Below, piece after piece: positions 3,191 through 28,520 of a stretch of DNA of 28,520 nucleotides. The notes below the pieces were generated by a model. That model was not told where the DNA came from, did not search any database, and saw only the letters and a list, made by a program, of their open reading frames with translations. The stretch's first letter is position 1; each line of letters starts with the position of its first letter. Both the position numbers and the translations under genes were made by a program. The stretch is taken from the IMG/VR virus record IMGVR_UViG_2657245664_000013, positions 1 through 28,520 of that record, one strand, 5' to 3'. The DNA is from a virus. Taxonomy: Duplodnaviria; Heunggongvirae; Uroviricota; Caudoviricetes.

Positions 3191-3775
3191 TTACATTGTG
3201 TCTGGTTCTTCCGGCCACTCAATATCAGGTGCAGTTGATGTATCAACACGATTCAACAACACCCGATATGTCTTCCATGCCGCCAGTAACGATGTCTCTT
3301 CCTCCGTTGCGATTTCCAGATCTGCAGCATCCTGAAGCGGCGCAATATGCTCACTGGCTACCCGCATGAGGCTGTTTTTTGTTTCTTCCGCCTCCCGTAT
3401 CCGAAACAGTTTTTCTGCTTCTGCATCTTTCACCCAGGTTGTGCCGTTCCACTTCTGATATTCCCCATCCGGCGACAACCAGGTGACATTTTCTGGTAAC
3501 GGGCCGAGTTCAGAAATAAATAACGCGTCACCTGATGCCACGTCATAGACCGTTTTTCCCCTGTGGTCTTCAACGAGATGCCATGATGTATCCTTACTGT
3601 TAAAAACAGCCACGAAGCCAGCCGGAATATCTGGCGGTGCAATATCGGTACTATTTGCAGGCAGACCTGTATGAGGGGGAATGTATGCATCACCTTCACC
3701 AATAAATTCATTGGTTCCGGCCAGCAGATTATAAATTTTTATAGTCCGTGGTTGTACACTCATTCTGAATGCCAT
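3191..3775 (-). CDS. tfa: Tail fiber assembly protein (lambda Tfa-like)
   Basis: 194 aa, near-identical in pattern to lambda Tfa as recalled ([59 protein letters not shown]...). ATG at 3773-3775 overlaps the stf stop. Confidence 0.92.
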
Positions 3776-6700
3776 TATGCAAGCCTCACAATATAGTTAA
3801 ATGCGATGTTTTTGACGGTGTTTTCCGCGTTACCAGCAGCGTTTACGGTGATGGTGTGTCCATGTGAACCAATCGCAACGGAGTGTGTATGAGCGCCAAT
3901 ATCAACAGTATGTGCGTGTGCGCCTGCACTTGCAGCAGTACCTGACACCGTGTGGGTATGCGCTCCGGCTGACGATGTGCCAGTACTCGAGTCTGAACGA
4001 GACGCACCTTTGAGGGCTCGATCGCCCTGCTCGGTATTGCCATATGGGTAACAGGCAACCGTGTGTGTATGTGCCCCTGCAGAAGCAGCCGTACCACTGA
4101 CACTATGGGTGTGCGCTCCGGTGTTATTCGTGGACCTGGTACCATAATTAAACGAACTGGTAGTTTTCGTCCCCAAATCCGTACTGGATGCACTGGCACT
4201 GTGGGTATGCGATTTAATGCCGTCCTGTTCCTGAGACAATACGGCCCGACCACTGGCAGGTTTGCCCTTAATCGTCCAGCCACGCATATCAGGGATCACG
4301 CCTGACGGATAAGCCGCTGCAAGTTTCGGGTATGCAGATTTGTCAAAAGCCTGCCCCTGCATCAGGGCATAGCCAGACGGAACGGTATCTGATGGCCACG
4401 GGATTGGTGCGCCGACTGGGTAGCTTTCTGGTGGAAGATTTTTCGAGGTATAAACTTCTGCCCAGTCTTCCTCAAAACCATAACCGTCTCTTGAAGAACG
4501 GTAGAACAGACCACCATTTCTGTAATGCGCCTTCATCTGCAAGGTCCGGCAACTTCCGACTCCGGTATAGAAGTTAACCAGAATATAGCTGTCGCCAGAG
4601 CGGGTGACATTATAAGCGCCTGATTCGGCATTCCAGGGAACGCCACCATCCGCATCGGCATATGTATCCGTTGCCCTTCTGGCAAAAGCGGCCACATGCG
4701 CGGCGGTTAAAGTGATATCAGTAGAACCATCAAATGGAACACCGGATATTTTTCTTGCAGTCTGAAGTTTTGTAGCAGTTGCAGCATTACCAGTGGTGTT
4801 CTGATTACCCGTAGTGTTTACACCTGGAAGGTTAATATTTGCAGAACCGTCGAAAACAACTCCACCGATAGATCTTGCCGTCTGCAATTTCGTGGCTGTA
4901 CTTGCATTACCATTCAATGAACCAGTTAATCCACCTGTAACAGACAACGGACCTGAAACTGTTCCTCCGGTTGTTGGCAGTGCACCAATATCTGATGGTG
5001 TAGGTTTCTGATGTGAGCTATACATCGTATAAACAACACCATAGGTAACGCTGGAAGGCTTACTCGCTGAATATGTTGGCGAGGTATAAACAGAAACTGA
5101 CGCATTTGCAGTACAATCCCAATGGATATTTACACTCGTCGCATATTTGCCAATCTCAACGTAAATATCATATGTATCGCCGGATGTGTTGATCCAGGCG
5201 AAATTCGTTAATCCGACGGCTGTACGCTTCCACAAAGCCCCGGTAATTCCTTTGGGGTTTCCATTGCCTGCTCGTAGAACCAGTTCTGAAATGCCTGCCT
5301 GATGTGGGGAACCGACGTTGTAACCAGCGCCACCAATCAATGCGATGTAAACGATGGAACTCGCTTGTGGCATGGTAACCGTAGCCAGTTTGAACCACCC
5401 AGCCCCGTCAAAGAAAGACATCGTTACTGAATTTAAAGTACCAATATCTTTCGGCGTTAATGTTATATCCGCAGTCAGTGCTTTTCCGTTAACTTTTCGG
5501 TTAGATGGCACCCTGCTATTCGCATTGTCATTGGCTGCTTTAACTGCTTTTGGCGTTGCGGCCAGCGATTCACTGGTGCTATCAACAGCACTGCTAAGTT
5601 TCACAACACCTTTAGTTGTAAGGCTTGCGTCTTCCATCGCAACTGCACCGGCAATCTCTTCAGCACGATCAGCAGCAGCTTCCGCACGGGTCGCAGCGGA
5701 TTCAGCAGCAGTTTTGCTCTGAGATGCTGCCGTCGCACTGCCTGCCGCCTCTGTTGCTTTCGTGGATGCCGTCGTGGCGCTGCCCTTCGCTGCTGACGCC
5801 TGTCTGGTCGCCTCATCTTTTGAAGCAGACGCAGATGATGCCGATGACGCTGCCGAACTGGCGGACGATGCGGCTGCCGTTTTTGAGGATTCTGCACGGG
5901 TTTCCGACGCTTTCGCGTTCGTCTCGGATGTCTTCGCTGCGGAAGCAGACCTCGCTGCTGCACTGGCCTGTTCAGTGGCTTCGCCAGCCTTCGTTGTGGC
6001 TGTTGAAGCAGACGAGGCGGCACTTTCTGCCGACTTTCCGGCAGCGGTGGCACTGGCTGAGGCCTGCCCGGCACTTGTTGACGCGGCACTGGCAGATGAT
6101 GCTGCCGCTGTTTTTGAGCCTGCCGCAGCTGAGGCGCTCTGTCCCGCTGCCGTTTCAGAAGACCTGGCGTTCGTCTCTGACGTTTTTGCCGCCTTCGCGG
6201 AATTGCCTGCCGCCGTTGCCGAGGAGGCTGCACTGCTGGCGCTTGTGGAGGCGTTCGTTTCTGATGATTTTGCCGCCTCTTTGGAGGCAGCCGCATCTCT
6301 GGCTGAAGTGGCGGCTTCTGACGCTTTCGTCGTCGCAGTGGATGCAGAAGTGGCTGCTGATTGTTGTGACGCTGCCGCATTCGTTTCTGACGTTTTCGCG
6401 GCACCGGCACTGGTGGCCGCCGCGCTTTTTGAGGACTCTGCAGCGGCAGCACTTTTTGACGCTTCCGTGGCCTTTGTTGATGCCGTTCCTGCGCTGGAAG
6501 AAGCCTCCTGAGCCGACGTCGCGGCCTGTCCGGCTGACGTGCTGGCTGCACGTGCTGAATCTGCAGCATCAGTCGCATGGGTTGCCGCCTCACTGGCTGA
6601 TGTGCCGGCATCACTGGCTGACTTCTTCGCGGCTGCCGTGTTCTGTGCCACTGCGGACGCGTTACGCGCCACCTCTTCCACCATCAGTTCAAAACGGCGC

Positions 6701-7072: not shown

Positions 7073-7672
7073 TCAGAATTTATAACCGACACCCACGATG
7101 AAACCGTCAGTGCGCCAGTCGCCACTGCCGGAACCTTCATAAGCGACATCAATGGCCACCGATTCGGTCGGGTTAAACTGCACGCCAGCTCCCCACGCCA
7201 GAGACGTGTTGCTGTGGCGACCGTCATCACTTCCGGTCAGCACATCGTGCGTTTTCCCCTTGCTGTCGGTCACCTGCAGATAATCCCCGGAGAAGGTCGA
7301 AACACGGCTGTAAGCCACCCCCGCCATCGCATACGCGCTGAACCATTCATTCACGCGCACAGACGGCCCCGCCATCACGCTGAACCAGCGGTTACGCACG
7401 GAATCTTCATGCCAGCGGGTATCGCTGTAATGCGTTTTTTGTTCATCTTCTGCGTCGGCATAACTGAAAGACGTAATCAGCCCCAGCGTGTCCGTAAATT
7501 CATAACGGTATTTCACGTTAATCCCGTTCAGATTATCGCTGCCGGGTGCGTTCGTACGGGCATGAAGATACCCTGCGCTCAGCGTGGCCTGCTGCTCAGA
7601 CGCCCATGCAGGCGCACCGGATACGGCCAGACAGATGGCTGCGGACAAAATGGCTGCACAAACTTTACGCAT
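7073..7672 (-). CDS. lom: Lom/Ail-family outer-membrane beta-barrel protein (moron)
   Basis: 199 aa with signal peptide MRKVCAAILSAAICLAVSGAPAWA and a beta-barrel ending in the aromatic motif VGVGYKF. Same position as lambda lom (between J and stf). Confidence 0.9.
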   Translation of the reverse strand: MRKVCAAILSAAICLAVSGAPAWASEQQATLSAGYLHARTNAPGSDNLNGINVKYRYEFTDTLGLITSFSYADAEDEQKTHYSDTRWHEDSVRNRWFSVMAGPSVRVNEWFSAYAMAGVAYSRVSTFSGDYLQVTDSKGKTHDVLTGSDDGRHSNTSLAWGAGVQFNPTESVAIDVAYEGSGSGDWRTDGFIVGVGYKF

Positions 7673-13292: not shown

Positions 13293-13633
13293 CAGTGAGT
13301 GACCTCTTCAAAGGTACAGTTAAAATCGGTATACATGGCATTATCCGAAATGCTCCACTCCCTGCAGACAACCCGGACAGTCCTGTTGTGTTTTGGCGGA
13401 CGCCACAAAAAAGCACGAATCCCGGCATGACGGGATAAAAAACTGTCCAGCGCGGCACGGGAATATTCATCTGTGACACGAAATACCGGTTTAAACGTTT
13501 TCAGATCTGCATTCAGACCACCAGCCCGTCGCTGTTCATATCCGTCACCGAACTTTACCGTAATAACAGATGGCTTTCGTGTCGTCTCCATCCCCTCGCG
13601 GGGGATCCAGTTAAAAACTTCAGACTCAGGCAC
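13292..13633 (-). CDS. M: Minor tail protein M
   Basis: gpM-like (VKFGDGY ... FLWRPP). Preferred start is the GTG at 13631-13633, preceded by a strong SD GGAGGA; the track start at 13678 is TTG with no SD. The ATG at 13591 is an alternative. Confidence 0.82.
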   Translation of the reverse strand: MPESEVFNWIPREGMETTRKPSVITVKFGDGYEQRRAGGLNADLKTFKPVFRVTDEYSRAALDSFLSRHAGIRAFLWRPPKHNRTVRVVCREWSISDNAMYTDFNCTFEEVTH

Positions 13634-16600
13634 TGTACAATCCTCCGTCCCGACGTGATGACTGCATAATTGACACAACCCTGCTGTCGATCAGATCCAC
13701 CAGTCCCCTGGCTGAGCGCGCATCTATCTCGCCATTGCTCCCTTGATTCTGAATGCTGATGTGATACACGGGAGAATAAACAAATCCACCGCCACCATTC
13801 ACATTTCCAATGGCCCTGACCCCAAGAGAGCCGTCCGCTGCCCGTGTCAGTGGCATGATTGCTTCAGGCCCGGCCTCGCCCATCAGCCCGGCACCTTTCG
13901 CAAAAGCAAAATACGTCGGGGTATCCACAATGGTGTTACTGTAAGCACTCAGATTTGCCGATGTATAAACACCACCTTTTGCGTTTGCCACTGCACCGGA
14001 AAGCCAGTCGCCGACTGTACCAAGCCATCCTCCGGCACCGGACATGCTTTTGGAAAGTGACTTCAGCCCGTTAACGATGGCAGCGTTCATCAGAATTTTT
14101 GAAACTTCCTGGAGAACTGAACTCCCCCAGTTTCTCCAGTCCACAACATTTCCGGCCAGTGCATCGGAAATATTTGATACCAGCCCGTCCATAGTGGAAA
14201 CGACAGCATCTGCCGCCTGCGAAGCATAATCGGTGGCACTGTCTGCCCAGTTCGTCAGTCCCTCCTGGAGTCCGGCATTCCAGTTACTGCGTAAAGCATC
14301 AGCCTTTGCATAATAATCCTGCTGATCGCTGAGACGCTCTTCCAGATATTTTTCATTCAGAGATTTTTCCTGTTTCCACAGGGCTTCTTCAATTTCTCCG
14401 GCCTGATACTGTCTCAGTAGCTCGTTATTTTTCTGCTCAAACGCCTGCCGGATACTCCACATTTCCTGGAGTCGTTCACGCATCCGTGAGCCTTCACCAT
14501 ATCCCAGCAACTGCGCTTCGTCAGATGCCCGGGCACTGGCATTACTGTCCGCCAGACTGCTCTCATACGCAGCAAGCTGCTCACGAATCTTTTTCTGGTC
14601 GATGAGTGCTGCATTCTGCAAAAGCGTTTTTTTCTGCGCTTCTGACAGGGTTGATAATTCGCCCTGACTGACCTGATATTTCATCTTAGCCAGTTCAGCA
14701 TTCTGCCCTGCCAGTGCTATTTGTTCTTTTTGCTGTTTAATCAGCCGTTTATAAATATCTTCTGTTTTTTCCGCTTCGGTCTTTTTATGCGCTTTGGGTT
14801 TATTTGCCTGGTTATTTCGCCAGGCATCCAGTGAGTTATTGATATAATTCTGTCTGGCTGTCTGATACGCCTCTCCCACAAAGCCGAGATCATCCGCAGC
14901 ATAACCCAGGCGGGCACGCTCACGGGCTTCCCCCTTCAGGCGGGACAGAGCCAGTTCGCGCTCGCTGTTATTCAGTGCGGTCTGCTGTTTATCATCCAGG
15001 GTTGCCTGTGGTAGCCGTAACGGTACATTCACCAGCCCCTGTCGCTGCTGAAGTAATTCATTACCGAGCCCGAGAAGGCGATTAAACTCGGTATGCTGCC
15101 CATTCATGATCAACAGGGACTGATACGCTTTGTTTTGTTCCGCTGCCTGTTGACGGATCAACGCCACCCGTCGCTCCTCCAGCCCGGCAAGCACATCCTG
15201 AATGGATTGCGCTTTGCCCTGCATTTGTGTGAGACGGGACTGTTCAACTGCCAGTTGATTTGTTGCTTCTGCAAGCCCTTCTGTGACAGTTTTTACCGAC
15301 GTCATGTGGTTAATCATAAAACCGTTATCGGTTGTCCAGCCCGGGTTTGCCAGCACATACTGATAGCCAGCAATTTTTTCCTGTAAGGATTTAATCTTAC
15401 TTTTCTGCTCGTCAATTAACCTGTTTTGCTCATCAAGTGCCTGCCGCGTCTTTTCCTCATTATCTGACGCTTCAGGAAGCGACATTGCCGACGTTTTCTG
15501 GCGAATTTCGTCGATTGTTGCGGCATACTGGCGTGCAGATTCTCTGGCCTGCTCCTGATTCTGATACATCGTGTACCAGGCCGCAGCCCCCAGCATGACA
15601 AGCCCCGGCACACCACCAACCAGTCCCAGTGCTCCACTTAACAGACGACTCCCCACTGACGTAACATTATTCAGCGTTGTCTGCGCTGCTGTTCTGGCCG
15701 CAATATTACGGGTAAGTGATGCCTGGGCAGCTGTCAGCTTCGCTTCTGCTGCGGCCTGCCTTTCGGTACCACGGGTAGCCGCAACCGCCTGTTGCGCACG
15801 ATAAACCGCAGCACGCGCCCTGGCGGTTGCTATCTTTGTCCCCCGGAGTTGCGCTTCAGCAAGAGCCACTTCGTTTCTGGCTGCAGTAATTAATCCGGCA
15901 GTTGCAGATCCAGCAGAAGACGCCATATTGCCAAAATACCGGGCTACCCCGACGGCAACCAGTGCACCGGCAGCGGTTGCCACGGTGTCAATATTGCCTG
16001 CAATACCATTCAGCACACCGGAGAGCGTCTTCGTCACTCCGCTTGCCTCGTTCGCACCACCAACCCAGGCCATAAAGGCGTTTTCAACTTTGGTTGCAGA
16101 GGATGAAACCGTATCAGGCATTGCCGCATATTCATCACGTAATGCCCCAAGCTGACTAATCAGTGCAGGAACAACCTTATCGGCGGTCAGTTTTCCGTTA
16201 TCCGCCATGGCCTTCAGATCCTTACGGGCAACGCCCATTCCCGCAGCCAGCGCGCGAATAACACGATCGCCGTTCTCATTCACCGAGTTAAATTCTTCAC
16301 CGCGCAGCACTCCCTGCGCCAGTACCTGACTGAACTGCGTGATCACCGAACTGGCTTCTGCGGTACTGGCACCGGATAATTTCAGGCCCGTGGAGATCGC
16401 CTCGGTGACTTTCAGTACCTCCTCAGAACTGTAGCCATACTCCCGCATGGAAGCTGCAGAGCGGGCAAAAAGGCTGGCGTTATCAGAAAACGCCGTTCCC
16501 GTTCTCTGGCTGATTGCCATTAATTCACGTTGTGATACCTGAAAATCATCACTGGACTGTGAAGCCTGCTTCAGACGGGCATTTACTGAATTCCACTCAT

Positions 16601-16871
16601 CGGCGAGAGAAATAAGATGACCGGTAGCAAAAGCTCCGGCAAATGCCCCCGCCATATTCAGTGCCGAAGATTTAGCTGTATTTATCTGATCCGTCACTTC
16701 TGCCAGTGCACGCCGCATTTCACGGGATGCAGCAGCGGACTGCCGGCCTCCGTTCTGCATGGTACGGTAGTAATCCTGCCCCATACGCGAAGCCCGGGAG
16801 ATCTCTGACTGGAATGACCGGGAATTTGCCGAGATTTTAATAATCAGTTCACGTAATGTCGCCACACTCAT
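13626..16871 (-). CDS. H: Tail tape measure protein
   Basis: 1081 aa, largely alpha-helical and coiled-coil-like, Ala/Gln-rich, with a hydrophobic Gly-rich segment. Sits between the G/T chaperones and M-L-K-I-J. Confidence 0.9.
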   Translation of the reverse strand: MSVATLRELIIKISANSRSFQSEISRASRMGQDYYRTMQNGGRQSAAASREMRRALAEVTDQINTAKSSALNMAGAFAGAFATGHLISLADEWNSVNARLKQASQSSDDFQVSQRELMAISQRTGTAFSDNASLFARSAASMREYGYSSEEVLKVTEAISTGLKLSGASTAEASSVITQFSQVLAQGVLRGEEFNSVNENGDRVIRALAAGMGVARKDLKAMADNGKLTADKVVPALISQLGALRDEYAAMPDTVSSSATKVENAFMAWVGGANEASGVTKTLSGVLNGIAGNIDTVATAAGALVAVGVARYFGNMASSAGSATAGLITAARNEVALAEAQLRGTKIATARARAAVYRAQQAVAATRGTERQAAAEAKLTAAQASLTRNIAARTAAQTTLNNVTSVGSRLLSGALGLVGGVPGLVMLGAAAWYTMYQNQEQARESARQYAATIDEIRQKTSAMSLPEASDNEEKTRQALDEQNRLIDEQKSKIKSLQEKIAGYQYVLANPGWTTDNGFMINHMTSVKTVTEGLAEATNQLAVEQSRLTQMQGKAQSIQDVLAGLEERRVALIRQQAAEQNKAYQSLLIMNGQHTEFNRLLGLGNELLQQRQGLVNVPLRLPQATLDDKQQTALNNSERELALSRLKGEARERARLGYAADDLGFVGEAYQTARQNYINNSLDAWRNNQANKPKAHKKTEAEKTEDIYKRLIKQQKEQIALAGQNAELAKMKYQVSQGELSTLSEAQKKTLLQNAALIDQKKIREQLAAYESSLADSNASARASDEAQLLGYGEGSRMRERLQEMWSIRQAFEQKNNELLRQYQAGEIEEALWKQEKSLNEKYLEERLSDQQDYYAKADALRSNWNAGLQEGLTNWADSATDYASQAADAVVSTMDGLVSNISDALAGNVVDWRNWGSSVLQEVSKILMNAAIVNGLKSLSKSMSGAGGWLGTVGDWLSGAVANAKGGVYTSANLSAYSNTIVDTPTYFAFAKGAGLMGEAGPEAIMPLTRAADGSLGVRAIGNVNGGGGFVYSPVYHISIQNQGSNGEIDARSARGLVDLIDSRVVSIMQSSRRDGGLYSA

Positions 16872-16880
16872 TCTCCGGAC

Positions 16881-16908
16881 GAAAAAAAACCGCCGAAGCG
16901 GTTTTTGT
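16881..16908. terminator. Strong bidirectional intrinsic terminator at the 3' end of the moron gene, immediately upstream of the tape measure start
   Basis: GAAAAAAAA-CCGCCGAAGCGG-TTTTTGTATTC. On minus-strand RNA the stem AACCGCUUCGGCGGUU is followed by UUUUUUUUCG, 6 nt after the moron stop at 16914-16916. Confidence 0.7.
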
Positions 16909-16913
16909 ATTCT

Positions 16914-17255
16914 TTAAAGAAGTCCGGCCTTACGCCTTGCTTCCTGAAGATATTCATCATCCGTTTTTTGTGAAACGGAACTATCTGCATTGCAAATTAA
17001 ATCACTACCGCAATGCTTACATTTAATAGCCTCTTCTTTGATCAACTCCGCACAGTAAGGGCATTTCTTCATGCCATTGCTTACCATTTGTTGTTCATGT
17101 GCCTTCTCATCTCTTTGGATTACTAGCGAATGAACCAGAGCAACAATAAAGATCATCGCACCATATACCCACCATCCTAAAAATGAGCGACCTTTGCTTT
17201 TCGCAATAATAGCTGGAATTAGTCCCAAAACTATTGAAATAAGTAAAAATTCCAT
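16914..17255 (-). CDS. Moron: small membrane protein with two N-terminal hydrophobic helices and a C-terminal CxxC-x12-CxxC zinc ribbon; function unknown
   Basis: 113 aa starting at the ATG at 17253-17255 (track start 17258 is TTG), with SD AAGGA upstream. Two hydrophobic helices ([38 protein letters not shown]) then CPYC...CKHC. Clearly AT-richer than flanking tail genes. Inserted where lambda T and H are contiguous. Confidence 0.7.
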
Positions 17256-17274
17256 CAATGTTTCCTTACTTTCT

Positions 17275-17303
17275 CAATAAAATGGGAATAATAATCCAGT
17301 CAA
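17275..17303 (-). promoter_or_regulatory. Putative sigma-70 promoter of the moron gene
   Basis: Minus strand TTGACT (-35-like, 17298-17303), 17-18 nt spacer, weak -10 (TTATTG or TATTGA), then SD AAGGA and ATG. Only the -35 is a good match. Confidence 0.35.
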
Positions 17304-17312
17304 GTGAAAAGA

Positions 17313-18001
17313 TCATCGAGCTGCAACAAATAATGCCTTCTCAATCTCAGCAAATGGATCTGAGGTGCCTTCTGTCTGCTCCTTCTCCCACTGAAGAAGC
17401 GCATCATTCAGTGGCACTTTGACCCCCTGCGCACCGTAAACAGCTGAAACTATCTGGGCAGCCCGGATATCAGCCCGCTCGTCACCCAGCGGGCTGAACC
17501 TGTCAAATTCTGCCCACATCATGATTTCTGATGCAGACATTTCCCGGCGTAACTCTGACAATGTGCGCCCCATCCTGAGCGCCAGCATCATCAGAAAACG
17601 CATCCCCGGAAGCGCTACTTTTTTTTAACCTCACCGGCATCACTGATCAGTTCCAGAGACTGCCGAAGAAGCCGCGCATGCACCGGGCCATACACGGCAA
17701 TCACCTGTTCACGATCATCCTCTGAAAATACAGGTTGCAGTCCGGTATCACACAGAACATCAATGAACAGTTCAACATCTGCCTCCAGATTTCGGCGGGC
17801 GCGCTCCGCAACGGATAACGGTGTCTCATCATCTTTTGCTTTAACGATCTCCTGCCAGCGCAACCAGGCTTCTGCAGAAGGTTCCCGTAATACAACCGTT
17901 GCCCCTTCCCATTCAGGCACATCAACAGTTTTATGGCGAAACCCCGACATCGTTGCCAGTGCCAGATTACGGATATTTTTAGTCATCACATCTATCCTCA
18001 T
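17313..18001 (-). CDS. T: Tail assembly chaperone G-T fusion produced by programmed -1 frameshift
   Basis: The G frame ends ...GEVKKK-stop. The -1 frame stays open through the shift site and continues VALPG-MRFLMMLALRMGRTL... to the stop at 17313-17315. Frame arithmetic confirms the T ORF is the -1 frame of G on the minus strand. Confidence 0.75.
17615..18001 (-). CDS. G: Tail assembly chaperone G
   Basis: 128 aa, acidic, in the position of lambda G between the major tail and tape measure genes. Start ATG overlaps the V stop (TAATG). Confidence 0.8.
   Translation of the reverse strand: MRIDVMTKNIRNLALATMSGFRHKTVDVPEWEGATVVLREPSAEAWLRWQEIVKAKDDETPLSVAERARRNLEADVELFIDVLCDTGLQPVFSEDDREQVIAVYGPVHARLLRQSLELISDAGEVKKK
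17618..17624 (-). other. Slippery heptamer A-AAA-AAG for the -1 ribosomal frameshift (G to GT)
   Basis: Minus strand reads GTT AAA AAA AAG TAG. The last seven bases before the stop form A AAA AAG, the same class of slippery site as in dnaX. The plus strand shows a T8 run at 17619-17626. Confidence 0.75.
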
Positions 18002-27515: not shown

Positions 27516-28520
27516 TTATTTCCCCACCAGCTCGTTTATCTCTTTCACTGTCTGGTTAAACCGCTCTGACTCAAGCTCAACACCTAAGGCCCGACGCCCC
27601 AGCGCCATTGCTGCTTTTATTGTGGAACCGGATCCCATAAAAAAATCAGCAACCAGATCACCTGGTCGACTACTGGCATTGATTATTTGCCTGAGCATAT
27701 CCGCCGGTTTCTCACACGGATGTTTCCCCGGGTAGAACTGAACGGGTTTATGCATCCAGACATCGGTATAAGGCACGGAGACTGATACGGAGAAATAGCG
27801 CCGGAGAGATTTAAACTCATCCAGCAATTCAGAATATTTGCGATTCAGTGAATCATAAGATGCCACCAGCTGGTGGTGTGGTTGTTCCAGTTGTTGTTCC
27901 TGAAACTTCTCTGCCGCTATACGGGAAAACAGTGCCTGTAACTTCCGATAGTCAGCCTCATTCGGCAACTGCCACTGACTGGCACCAAACCAGTGGGAAA
28001 CCATATTTTTCTTACCTGTGGCTTCGGCAATTTGTTTTGCCGTTATACCCAGTTCGGCACGAGCATCCCTGAAATACGATATCAGCGGTGCCATTATGTG
28101 CTGTTTGAGTTCCCTTTCTTTTGCTGCATAGCCGTCACTTTTGCCGCGATATGGCCCCTGGTAATGTTCAGCAAACAGAACGCGCTCTGTGGCAGGAAAA
28201 TATGCGCGCAGACTTTCTTTATTACACCCATTCCAACGTCCGGACGGCTTCGCCCAGATGATATGGTTAAGCACGTTGAAACGTTCACGCATCATGATCT
28301 CAATATCAGATGCCAGGCGATGTCCACAGAACAGGTAAAGGCTTCCGGCAGGTTTCAACACCCGCCAGAACTGGGCCAGACAGTGATCCAGCCACTTAAG
28401 GTAATCTTCGTCCCCTTTCCACTGATTGTCCCAACCGTTGGGTTTCACCTTGAAGTACGGCGGATCGGTAACAATCAGGTCAATGGAATCATCAGGCAGG
28501 GACTGAATAAAATGCAGGCA
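27516..28520 (-). CDS. DNA methyltransferase (beta-class N6-adenine / N4-cytosine type), 5'-truncated by the window edge
   Basis: The reading frame stays open to the window end. Translating the last bases gives ...[16 protein letters not shown] (DPPY motif IV), and the C-terminal part has the AdoMet motif DFFMGSGST. The order DPPY before FxGxG indicates beta-class. Confidence 0.88.

Follow-up and report, generated by a model that had tools for sequence, protein, structure and literature searches.

The closest described counterpart of the locus studied here is gene 15 of phage HK97. Superinfection exclusion has been shown for its product, gp15, which is reported to be expressed from the prophage, to insert into the inner membrane and to block genome entry (Cumby et al. 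2012, per PMC3594210). P22 SieA, TP-J34 Ltp and Tuc2009 Sie2009 are also prophage-expressed membrane proteins or lipoproteins that block DNA injection; they are unrelated to the protein described below in sequence, size and gene position, and share with it the proposed mechanism only. Morons, in the sense of Juhala/Hendrix 2000, are recognized as extra DNA between genes that are adjacent in relatives and by their deviant base composition, and further by their own promoter, their own terminator and expression from the repressed prophage (PMC3594210). In this work we analyzed a 28,520-bp stretch of viral DNA (IMG/VR record IMGVR_UViG_2657245664_000013, positions 1 to 28,520; hereafter the window), and in it the 441-bp gap between the tail chaperone gene T and the tape measure gene (H in lambda). 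The gap holds a single sensible open reading frame (ORF), which encodes a predicted two-helix membrane protein of 113 amino acids (aa) with a zinc ribbon. The host element of this cassette is an HK97-like Escherichia coli prophage on the minus strand, integrated at dusA. The cassette is very probably an optional moron encoding a membrane protein. That its product blocks phage genome entry at the inner membrane is a tentative reading, to which we give a probability of about 0.4.

In HK97, gp15 is encoded in the very gap that the cassette fills, and the HK97-type tail modules around the two genes are homologous. Between the tape measure protein of the window and HK97 gp16, identity is 55% overall and ~90% across the first 300 residues. 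The layout of the two loci is shared as well, since in both the gene starts 57 nt past the stop codon of T and is followed within a few nt by a terminator hairpin that precedes the tape measure gene. Both products are small predicted inner-membrane proteins, and both genes are low in G+C content (GC) and optional among relatives. The proteins differ in that gp15 is a YebO-like 62-aa protein that has a single membrane helix and lacks a cysteine motif, whereas the cassette protein has 113 aa, two helices and a zinc ribbon; exclusion is demonstrated for the former and inferred for the latter. An earlier note on this DNA, made from the sequence alone, had guessed at exclusion or defense; the guess stays tentative and draws its main new support from the use of exactly this slot by a proven exclusion gene, gp15.

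The ORF (16914-17255, minus strand) starts with ATG, 7 nt downstream of the Shine-Dalgarno sequence AAGGA (17263-17267, minus strand), and an in-frame TTG lies one codon upstream of the ATG (17256-17258). The 441-bp gap with its 113-aa ORF, the Shine-Dalgarno sequence and a GC content below that of the neighbors had all been reported in the earlier note and were confirmed. The GC content is 38.6% for the ORF and 0.37-0.41 in the gap, as compared with ~0.52 on either side, and it was 0.36-0.42 in 82 of 82 copies of the gene examined. E. coli genomes in NCBI list the identical protein as a 'zinc ribbon domain-containing protein' (WP_000394908.1). A full-length match to PHROG 8436 (2e-50) places residues 1-111 on positions 1-108 of the 110-position profile, and 1623 homologues were found in a protein collection clustered at 90%. 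A profile search of 1.84 billion representatives gave 366 clusters (50% identity) at E ≤ 1e-30, rising to 4281 at E ≤ 1e-10. The gene is under strong purifying selection, with a ratio of nonsynonymous to synonymous substitution rates (dN/dS) of 0.09 against an 85%-identical copy. Because of these homologues, the full-length PHROG match, the dN/dS and the invariant cysteines described below, the ORF is a real gene, well past a chance reading frame.

Presence or absence of the insert at the T/tape-measure junction, a comparison that the earlier note had proposed, was followed in 5426 complete E. coli genomes. The 1401-bp T/tape-measure region was matched in 903 of them, and the insert was covered in only 44. 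In the remaining backbone genomes both flanks are 97-99% identical and lie ~46 bp apart, in the order T, 46 bp and tape measure gene. When the cassette alone was searched, 51 complete genomes were found, 46 of them at a coverage of at least 80%, which sets ~46 inserts against 903 backbones. Sixteen copies are at least 95% identical, 29 are 80-90% identical (~84%) and 6 are more diverged. The insert is missing from about 95% of the E. coli prophages that share the near-identical backbone, and it was found in 0 of 11 sequenced phage records that have the same backbone. An empty-site relative has a tape measure protein with 98% identity over 650 residues, which indicates that in this lineage the cassette is neither essential nor bound to a special tape measure type; a link to a particular type within the lineage was ruled out on this ground. 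In strain 500010, which represents the 85% lineage, flanks and cassette have diverged in parallel (tape measure protein 92%, cassette protein 85% identity), and the gene is thus an old resident which was lost or replaced in most E. coli relatives.

The cassette thus shows two of the marks of a moron, extra DNA between adjacent genes and deviant base composition, and it does not have the fixed position in all related phages that is expected of a core tail gene. Its presence and absence between 97-99% identical flanks, its low GC, the promoter-like site and terminator of more distant relatives and the occurrence of relatives in other tail gaps bear out the earlier view that it is a moron and not a virion component. 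The opposite view, that it encodes a conserved essential tail-assembly component, is effectively excluded. The position among tail genes is the one point for it; the gene is absent in most close relatives, the tail-gene gap that it occupies differs between phages (L/K, K/I), and the product is a membrane protein encoded at atypically low GC. Conservation as an essential tail component in all relatives was the outcome that the earlier note had named as contrary to its proposal, and it is not what was seen, ~95% of close relatives being without the gene.

The upstream border of the cassette does not coincide with the stop codon of T. DNA identity to the empty-site relatives collapses ~35 nt before that stop, near 17349, and the last ~12 codons of T (17313-17349, minus strand) are diverged in the alignment. 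Because identity breaks within T, the exchanged segment takes in the last codons of T, the spacer and the gene. In the alignment, the exchange resembles recombination through the conserved flanking DNA more than an exact insertion.

At the downstream border, an intrinsic-terminator-like hairpin (16882-16906, minus strand; 9-bp stem, UUCG loop, 8 U) begins 7 nt past the stop of the ORF, with the sequence AAAAACCGC-UUCG-GCGGUUUUU followed by the U-run, and stands directly upstream of the ribosome-binding site of the tape measure gene. Its folding energy is -16 kcal/mol (z = -2.5). A hairpin of this kind follows the cassette in every relative examined, and the stem variants are compensatory. In TUM9757, which is without the insert, only 8 nt separate T from the identical hairpin, after which comes the tape measure ribosome-binding site. 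The terminator reported in the earlier note therefore exists, but it belongs to the phage backbone and is not borne by the cassette, because the identical hairpin is found in empty-site relatives. The T/tape-measure hairpin accordingly stands in the middle of the late operon even in insert-free prophages (window 16882-16906; positions 1997-2020 of locus L002). Insulation of the tail genes in the lysogen is one possible role; alternatively, the hairpin could have been left behind by an earlier moron.

The TTGACT (17298-17303, minus strand) that had been taken for a -35 element is a doubtful candidate. Its sole -10-like partner, TTTATT (17276-17281, 16 nt spacing), has no A at position 2, a near-identical relative and the 85% lineage both have TTTACT in place of the hexamer, and a consensus promoter scan called no promoter on the cassette strand of the window. 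The alternative candidate ATGATC (17311-17316)-17 nt-TATTAT (17288-17293), spanning 17288-17316 on the minus strand, has a good -10 and a poor -35. At this place more distant cassettes conserve GTGACA-17-TAGGAT (alignment of 45 distinct upstream sequences), where the TGA inside GTGACA is the stop codon of T, and the promoter scanner calls this site in Cronobacter and Salmonella relatives. The promoter-like site together with the terminator in distant relatives suggests independent expression. Independent transcription of the cassette is thus plausible at the family level, while the promoter of the present copy is weak and a candidate only. To call the cassette self-contained and punctuated, as the earlier note did, was an overstatement for this copy, with its backbone terminator and weak promoter.

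The weak promoter of this copy would also suit a protein that serves only in the lytic cycle, made from the late operon and shielding the membrane of the producer from its own tape measure protein, tuning injection or assembly, or affecting lysis timing. The gene is co-oriented within the late operon, so that antiterminated late transcripts must read through it; it lies tightly against the tape measure gene and diverges in step with it (85% vs 92% protein identity in strain 500010), and a family member is found in Klebsiella phage KP12, whose record is classed under Vequintavirinae. Such a role is nevertheless unlikely, because the gene is missing from ~95% of those E. coli prophages whose backbone is 97-99% identical, and also from the sequenced phage records with that backbone, because the distant relatives point to independent expression, and because the gene is outside the lysis cassette. 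Since that cassette is located elsewhere in the same prophage type, a holin reading was rejected as well.

The AlphaFold2 (AF2) model of the protein (mean predicted local distance difference test score, pLDDT, 75.7) consists of helices 2-21 and 25-45, a short helix 50-59, the ribbon and a helix 99-109. Transmembrane helix 1 (residues 2-21; 17193-17252, minus strand, as for all parts of the protein) ends in IPAxIA and contains the invariant G11, P14 and A18. Transmembrane helix 2 (residues 25-45; 17121-17183) comes after the basic loop KSKGRS and carries FxxWWxYG...A..H. The zinc ribbon (residues 62-86; 16998-17072) is formed by C65-P-Y-C68, ten residues and C79-K-H-C82, and Zn_ribbon_3 (PF13248) is the sole family recognized by Pfam (34.7 bits vs a cut-off of 27). 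The two helices and the C-terminal ribbon described earlier are therefore supported by the model and by Zn_ribbon_3, with the spacing between the cysteine pairs corrected from x12 to x10. In an alignment of 62 sequences the conserved core covers residues 1-86, with the motif IPAxIAxSKGRSFxxWWxYG...A..H and then KCP(Y/F)CAExIKxEAxKCKHCG. The four cysteines of the predicted ribbon, C65, C68, C79 and C82, are invariant, as are G11, P14, A18, K21, G22, F25, W28, W29, Y31, G32, A39, H42, E70 and A76.

The short C-terminal helix (residues 99-109; 16929-16961), seen in the AF2 model and the alignment, is conserved in the 109-115-aa subfamily only, and other members have unrelated tails. Across the family the tail is absent or takes the form of a short DEEYLEEARKKAGLL helix, of a third membrane helix, of additional ribbons or of a helical domain of ~90 aa. 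The core was also seen inside proteins of 260-470 aa without Pfam annotation (P0359, P0348, P0295, P0306, P0322), and in these larger relatives the core is accompanied by secreted-looking domains at the N-terminus, or by a third membrane helix with Cys-rich C-terminal domains after it. A Foldseek search of the AF2 model against the PDB, which the earlier note had proposed, gave nothing beyond generic RanBP2/NZF-type ribbons (E > 0.2), but the family, left unassigned there, could nonetheless be placed as PHROG 8436. An NCBIfam scan of the protein gave chance-level ribbon matches only.

A second likeness is to the Imm type of exclusion protein. Gp065 of Pseudomonas phage YMC11/02/R656 has a PF14373 (Imm_superinfect) domain (1.6e-18, 66.8 bits) fused to the same ribbon, and its gene is likewise directly upstream of the tape measure gene, in the slot of the cassette gene. 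The PF14373 part of gp065 also matches imm genes of T-even phages. Gp065 aligns to residues 3-86 of the cassette protein with 32% identity (3e-8), a significance that comes mainly from the ribbon. The gp065 type and the cassette protein have in common a two-helix hairpin with an (I/L)PAxIA opening, a basic loop and a CP(Y/F)CAE...C(K/R)(H/Y)CG ribbon. They differ in helix 2, where FxxWWxYG in the cassette protein stands against NxxLGWTxxGW in the Imm_superinfect type and a gap of 10 residues is needed. At least 300 proteins show gp065-type similarity, many of them annotated with PF14373 and PF13248. Among the gp065-type fusions in viral contigs, at least 23 of 49 are in tail-gene gaps, and the gene that follows is a tape measure gene in 9 cases, an I-like gene in 10 and an L-like gene in 4. 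The cases before I-like genes are ten P. aeruginosa viral contigs (Imm_superinfect plus zinc ribbon; loci among L112-L121, L169, L178, L180 and L185). The C-terminal domain of gp065 was considered as a periplasmic SPOR marker and dropped: its model is a generic beta-alpha-beta-beta-alpha-beta, ferredoxin-like fold, the best structural matches in the PDB are the UreE C-domain and ACT (E ~5e-3) with no SPOR, and a sequence search of the PDB gave noise only. The loose resemblance to Imm noticed earlier thus gains indirect support, through gp065. It is fair to state that architecture and genomic habit of the cassette protein parallel those of Imm-type proteins, and that it is not recognized as a member of Imm_superinfect.

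The genomic habit of the family itself was followed in IMG/VR, where 565 family loci were found. The tape measure gene is directly downstream in 77 of the 78 closest loci analyzed (at least 62% identity), and a recognizable T is upstream in 65 of the 78. The pre-tape-measure slot is also used in Salmonella phage FSL SP-016, in Cronobacter prophages, in Klebsiella phage ST974-OXA48phi18.2 and in a Raoultella prophage of a different tail lineage (Phage_tube_2/TMP_2). In Pseudomonas phage vB_PaeS-D14C a family gene is in the same slot, unannotated in the record, and in all of its 21 analyzed IMG/VR relatives the gene lies 141 nt before the tape measure gene. The T/tape-measure gap of vB_PaeS-D14C (locus L021, 3512-4276) contains two unannotated plus-strand ORFs, of which 3512-3928 is lipoprotein-like (...LTAVLSGCASSG...) and 3965-4276 is the 103-aa two-helix zinc-ribbon relative; the record annotates instead a 58-aa reverse ORF at 3873-4049. 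Other tail gaps hold members as well, namely L/K in Edwardsiella and K/I in Atlantibacter. In Cronobacter (locus L009, 5001-8289) a degraded prophage has a truncated tape measure gene, whose called ORF also shows IMS/UmuC-type Pfam hits, and upstream of it an intact zinc-ribbon gene, which may have been retained after decay of the phage.

This distribution has to be weighed against a role in lysogenic conversion apart from exclusion, in which the protein would modulate a transporter, a sensor or an envelope process and thereby benefit the host. The host-directed roles of morons are diverse (PMC3594210), the prophage itself carries a further moron, Lom, and family members are known beyond tail modules, for example in a Pantoea chromosomal island and beside RmuC and an integrase in Desulfobaccales. 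A role of this kind does not predict the strong preference for siphophage tail-operon gaps, chiefly the pre-tape-measure one, across unrelated tail lineages, and we regard it as improbable.

For the block of genome entry, the following course is proposed. The protein would be made in the lysogen from the weak promoter just past the stop of T, and additionally during late transcription, and would insert into the inner membrane. There it would block entry of an incoming siphophage genome at the point where the DNA conduit is built from the tape measure protein and inner-membrane entry factors, with the membrane-tethered ribbon as the presumed recognition surface. The outcome would be superinfection exclusion of the HK97 gp15 or T4 Imm kind, and the cassette would probably protect the lysogen from other phages.

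Several results speak against the proposal that the protein blocks entry. Homology to HK97 gp15 was not found by BLASTP (E = 0.3 over 11 residues), and the protein has no match to PF14373 even at E ≤ 1. When ribbon-free N-terminal profiles were compared with the Imm_superinfect type by hhalign, the probability was 16% (P = 0.0016) with a gap of 10 residues. PHROG 8436 is annotated as 'unknown function', PADLOC-DB 2.0 gave no defense match (chance matches of the ribbon region to HEase at 1.2e-3 and LmuB at 6.7e-3), and in the literature nothing specific was found on this family or on zinc-ribbon exclusion proteins. Expression in the lysogen is called into question by the poor promoter of this copy, with no call in the scan. 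Some members lie elsewhere or outside prophage tail modules, and the adjacency to the tape measure gene may be merely that of a tolerated insertion hotspot; the linkage could reflect matched specificity, and a tolerated hotspot alone could equally account for it. The side of the membrane on which the ribbon lies is a further difficulty. The positive-inside rule gives no clear bias (K+R 2.26 in the loop vs 3.04 after helix 2), and multi-domain relatives are in conflict: an N-terminal signal-peptide-like segment and a domain before the core in P0359 and P0348 imply a periplasmic ribbon, while a basic cluster between ribbon and third helix in P0295, and a third helix followed by a Cys-rich domain in P0306, imply a cytoplasmic one.

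A cytoplasmic ribbon, as implied by P0295 and P0306, would suit an anti-phage function after DNA entry, either as an abortive membrane sensor-effector or as a Tab-like recognizer of tape measure proteins that blocks tail assembly. Tab, a prophage moron which acts on tape measure proteins after entry, is a precedent (PMC10884400), and the linkage to the tape measure gene suits a protein recognizing tape measure proteins. Against a function of this type stand the lack of similarity to Tab, Tai or any PADLOC model, of an evident partner or counter-defense gene beside the ORF within the gap, and of an effector domain recognizable by Pfam or Foldseek, and its probability is low in our view. As relatives of the cassette protein, Tab, Tai and Fc02 Olg1/ORF10 were ruled out, being unrelated proteins at other positions.

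The exclusion reading may be extended to a wider one, which we hold to be possible though doubtful. Ribbon proteins with CP(Y/F)CAE...C(K/R)(H/Y)CG on various two-helix anchors, Imm_superinfect included, would form a widespread unrecognized exclusion class, linked genetically to the tape measure gene, in siphophages of Enterobacterales and Pseudomonas. What the ribbon recognizes would be either the tape measure protein of the incoming phage or the entry complex at the inner membrane, and the linkage would keep this specificity kin-matched.

The surroundings of the cassette are those of an HK97-type late operon. T (17313-17603, minus strand; Pfam Phage_tail_T, 1.6e-20) is preceded by tail chaperone G (17615-18001, minus strand; Phage_TAC_1, 2.8e-58), and the HK97-type tape measure gene (13626-16871, minus strand) matches Phage_HK97_TLTM, TMP_3 and Tape_meas_lam_C. 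The frame of G terminates with GTT AAA AAA AAG TAG, and the A-rich run at the G/T junction (17604-17625) is a likely -1 frameshift site producing a G-T fusion chaperone. A second classic moron, encoding an Ail/Lom outer-membrane protein (7073-7672; Pfam 7.7e-125), lies between J and the tail fiber gene. An N6/N4 DNA methyltransferase gene (27516-28448; Pfam 2.1e-36) directly upstream of the lysis genes may be a further accessory gene of the prophage. The prophage/dusA junction region is at 166-2765 of the window, with dusA (542-1579) adjoining the prophage, the integrase gene at 1668-2765 and pspG beyond. In strain 20AR1039 the T/tape-measure region (1401 bp, cassette included; locus L001, 29985-31401) is 99.9% identical to the window, and the prophage end adjoins potB/potA, as against dusA in the window; the cassette is therefore also present in prophages at another chromosomal site.

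In conclusion, the cassette is a small membrane-protein moron of a large uncharacterized family in a well-known hotspot, and its function is a reasoned hypothesis. If it is not an exclusion protein, it is an ordinary uncharacterized moron; what recommends it for experiments is the pattern seen across the family, and it is not in itself surprising. That one type of ribbon recurs at this genomic position on different membrane anchors offers a lead that can be tested, and bears also on predicting the host range of phages and the resistance conferred by prophages in clinical E. coli, Salmonella, Klebsiella and Pseudomonas. If the block of genome entry is true, the classic HK97 gp15 slot would house a second exclusion family, of no relation to the first and far more widely distributed, and its two-helix anchor with a ribbon would be a compact handle on the passage of siphophage DNA across the inner membrane, a poorly understood step, and on the role of the tape measure protein in it.

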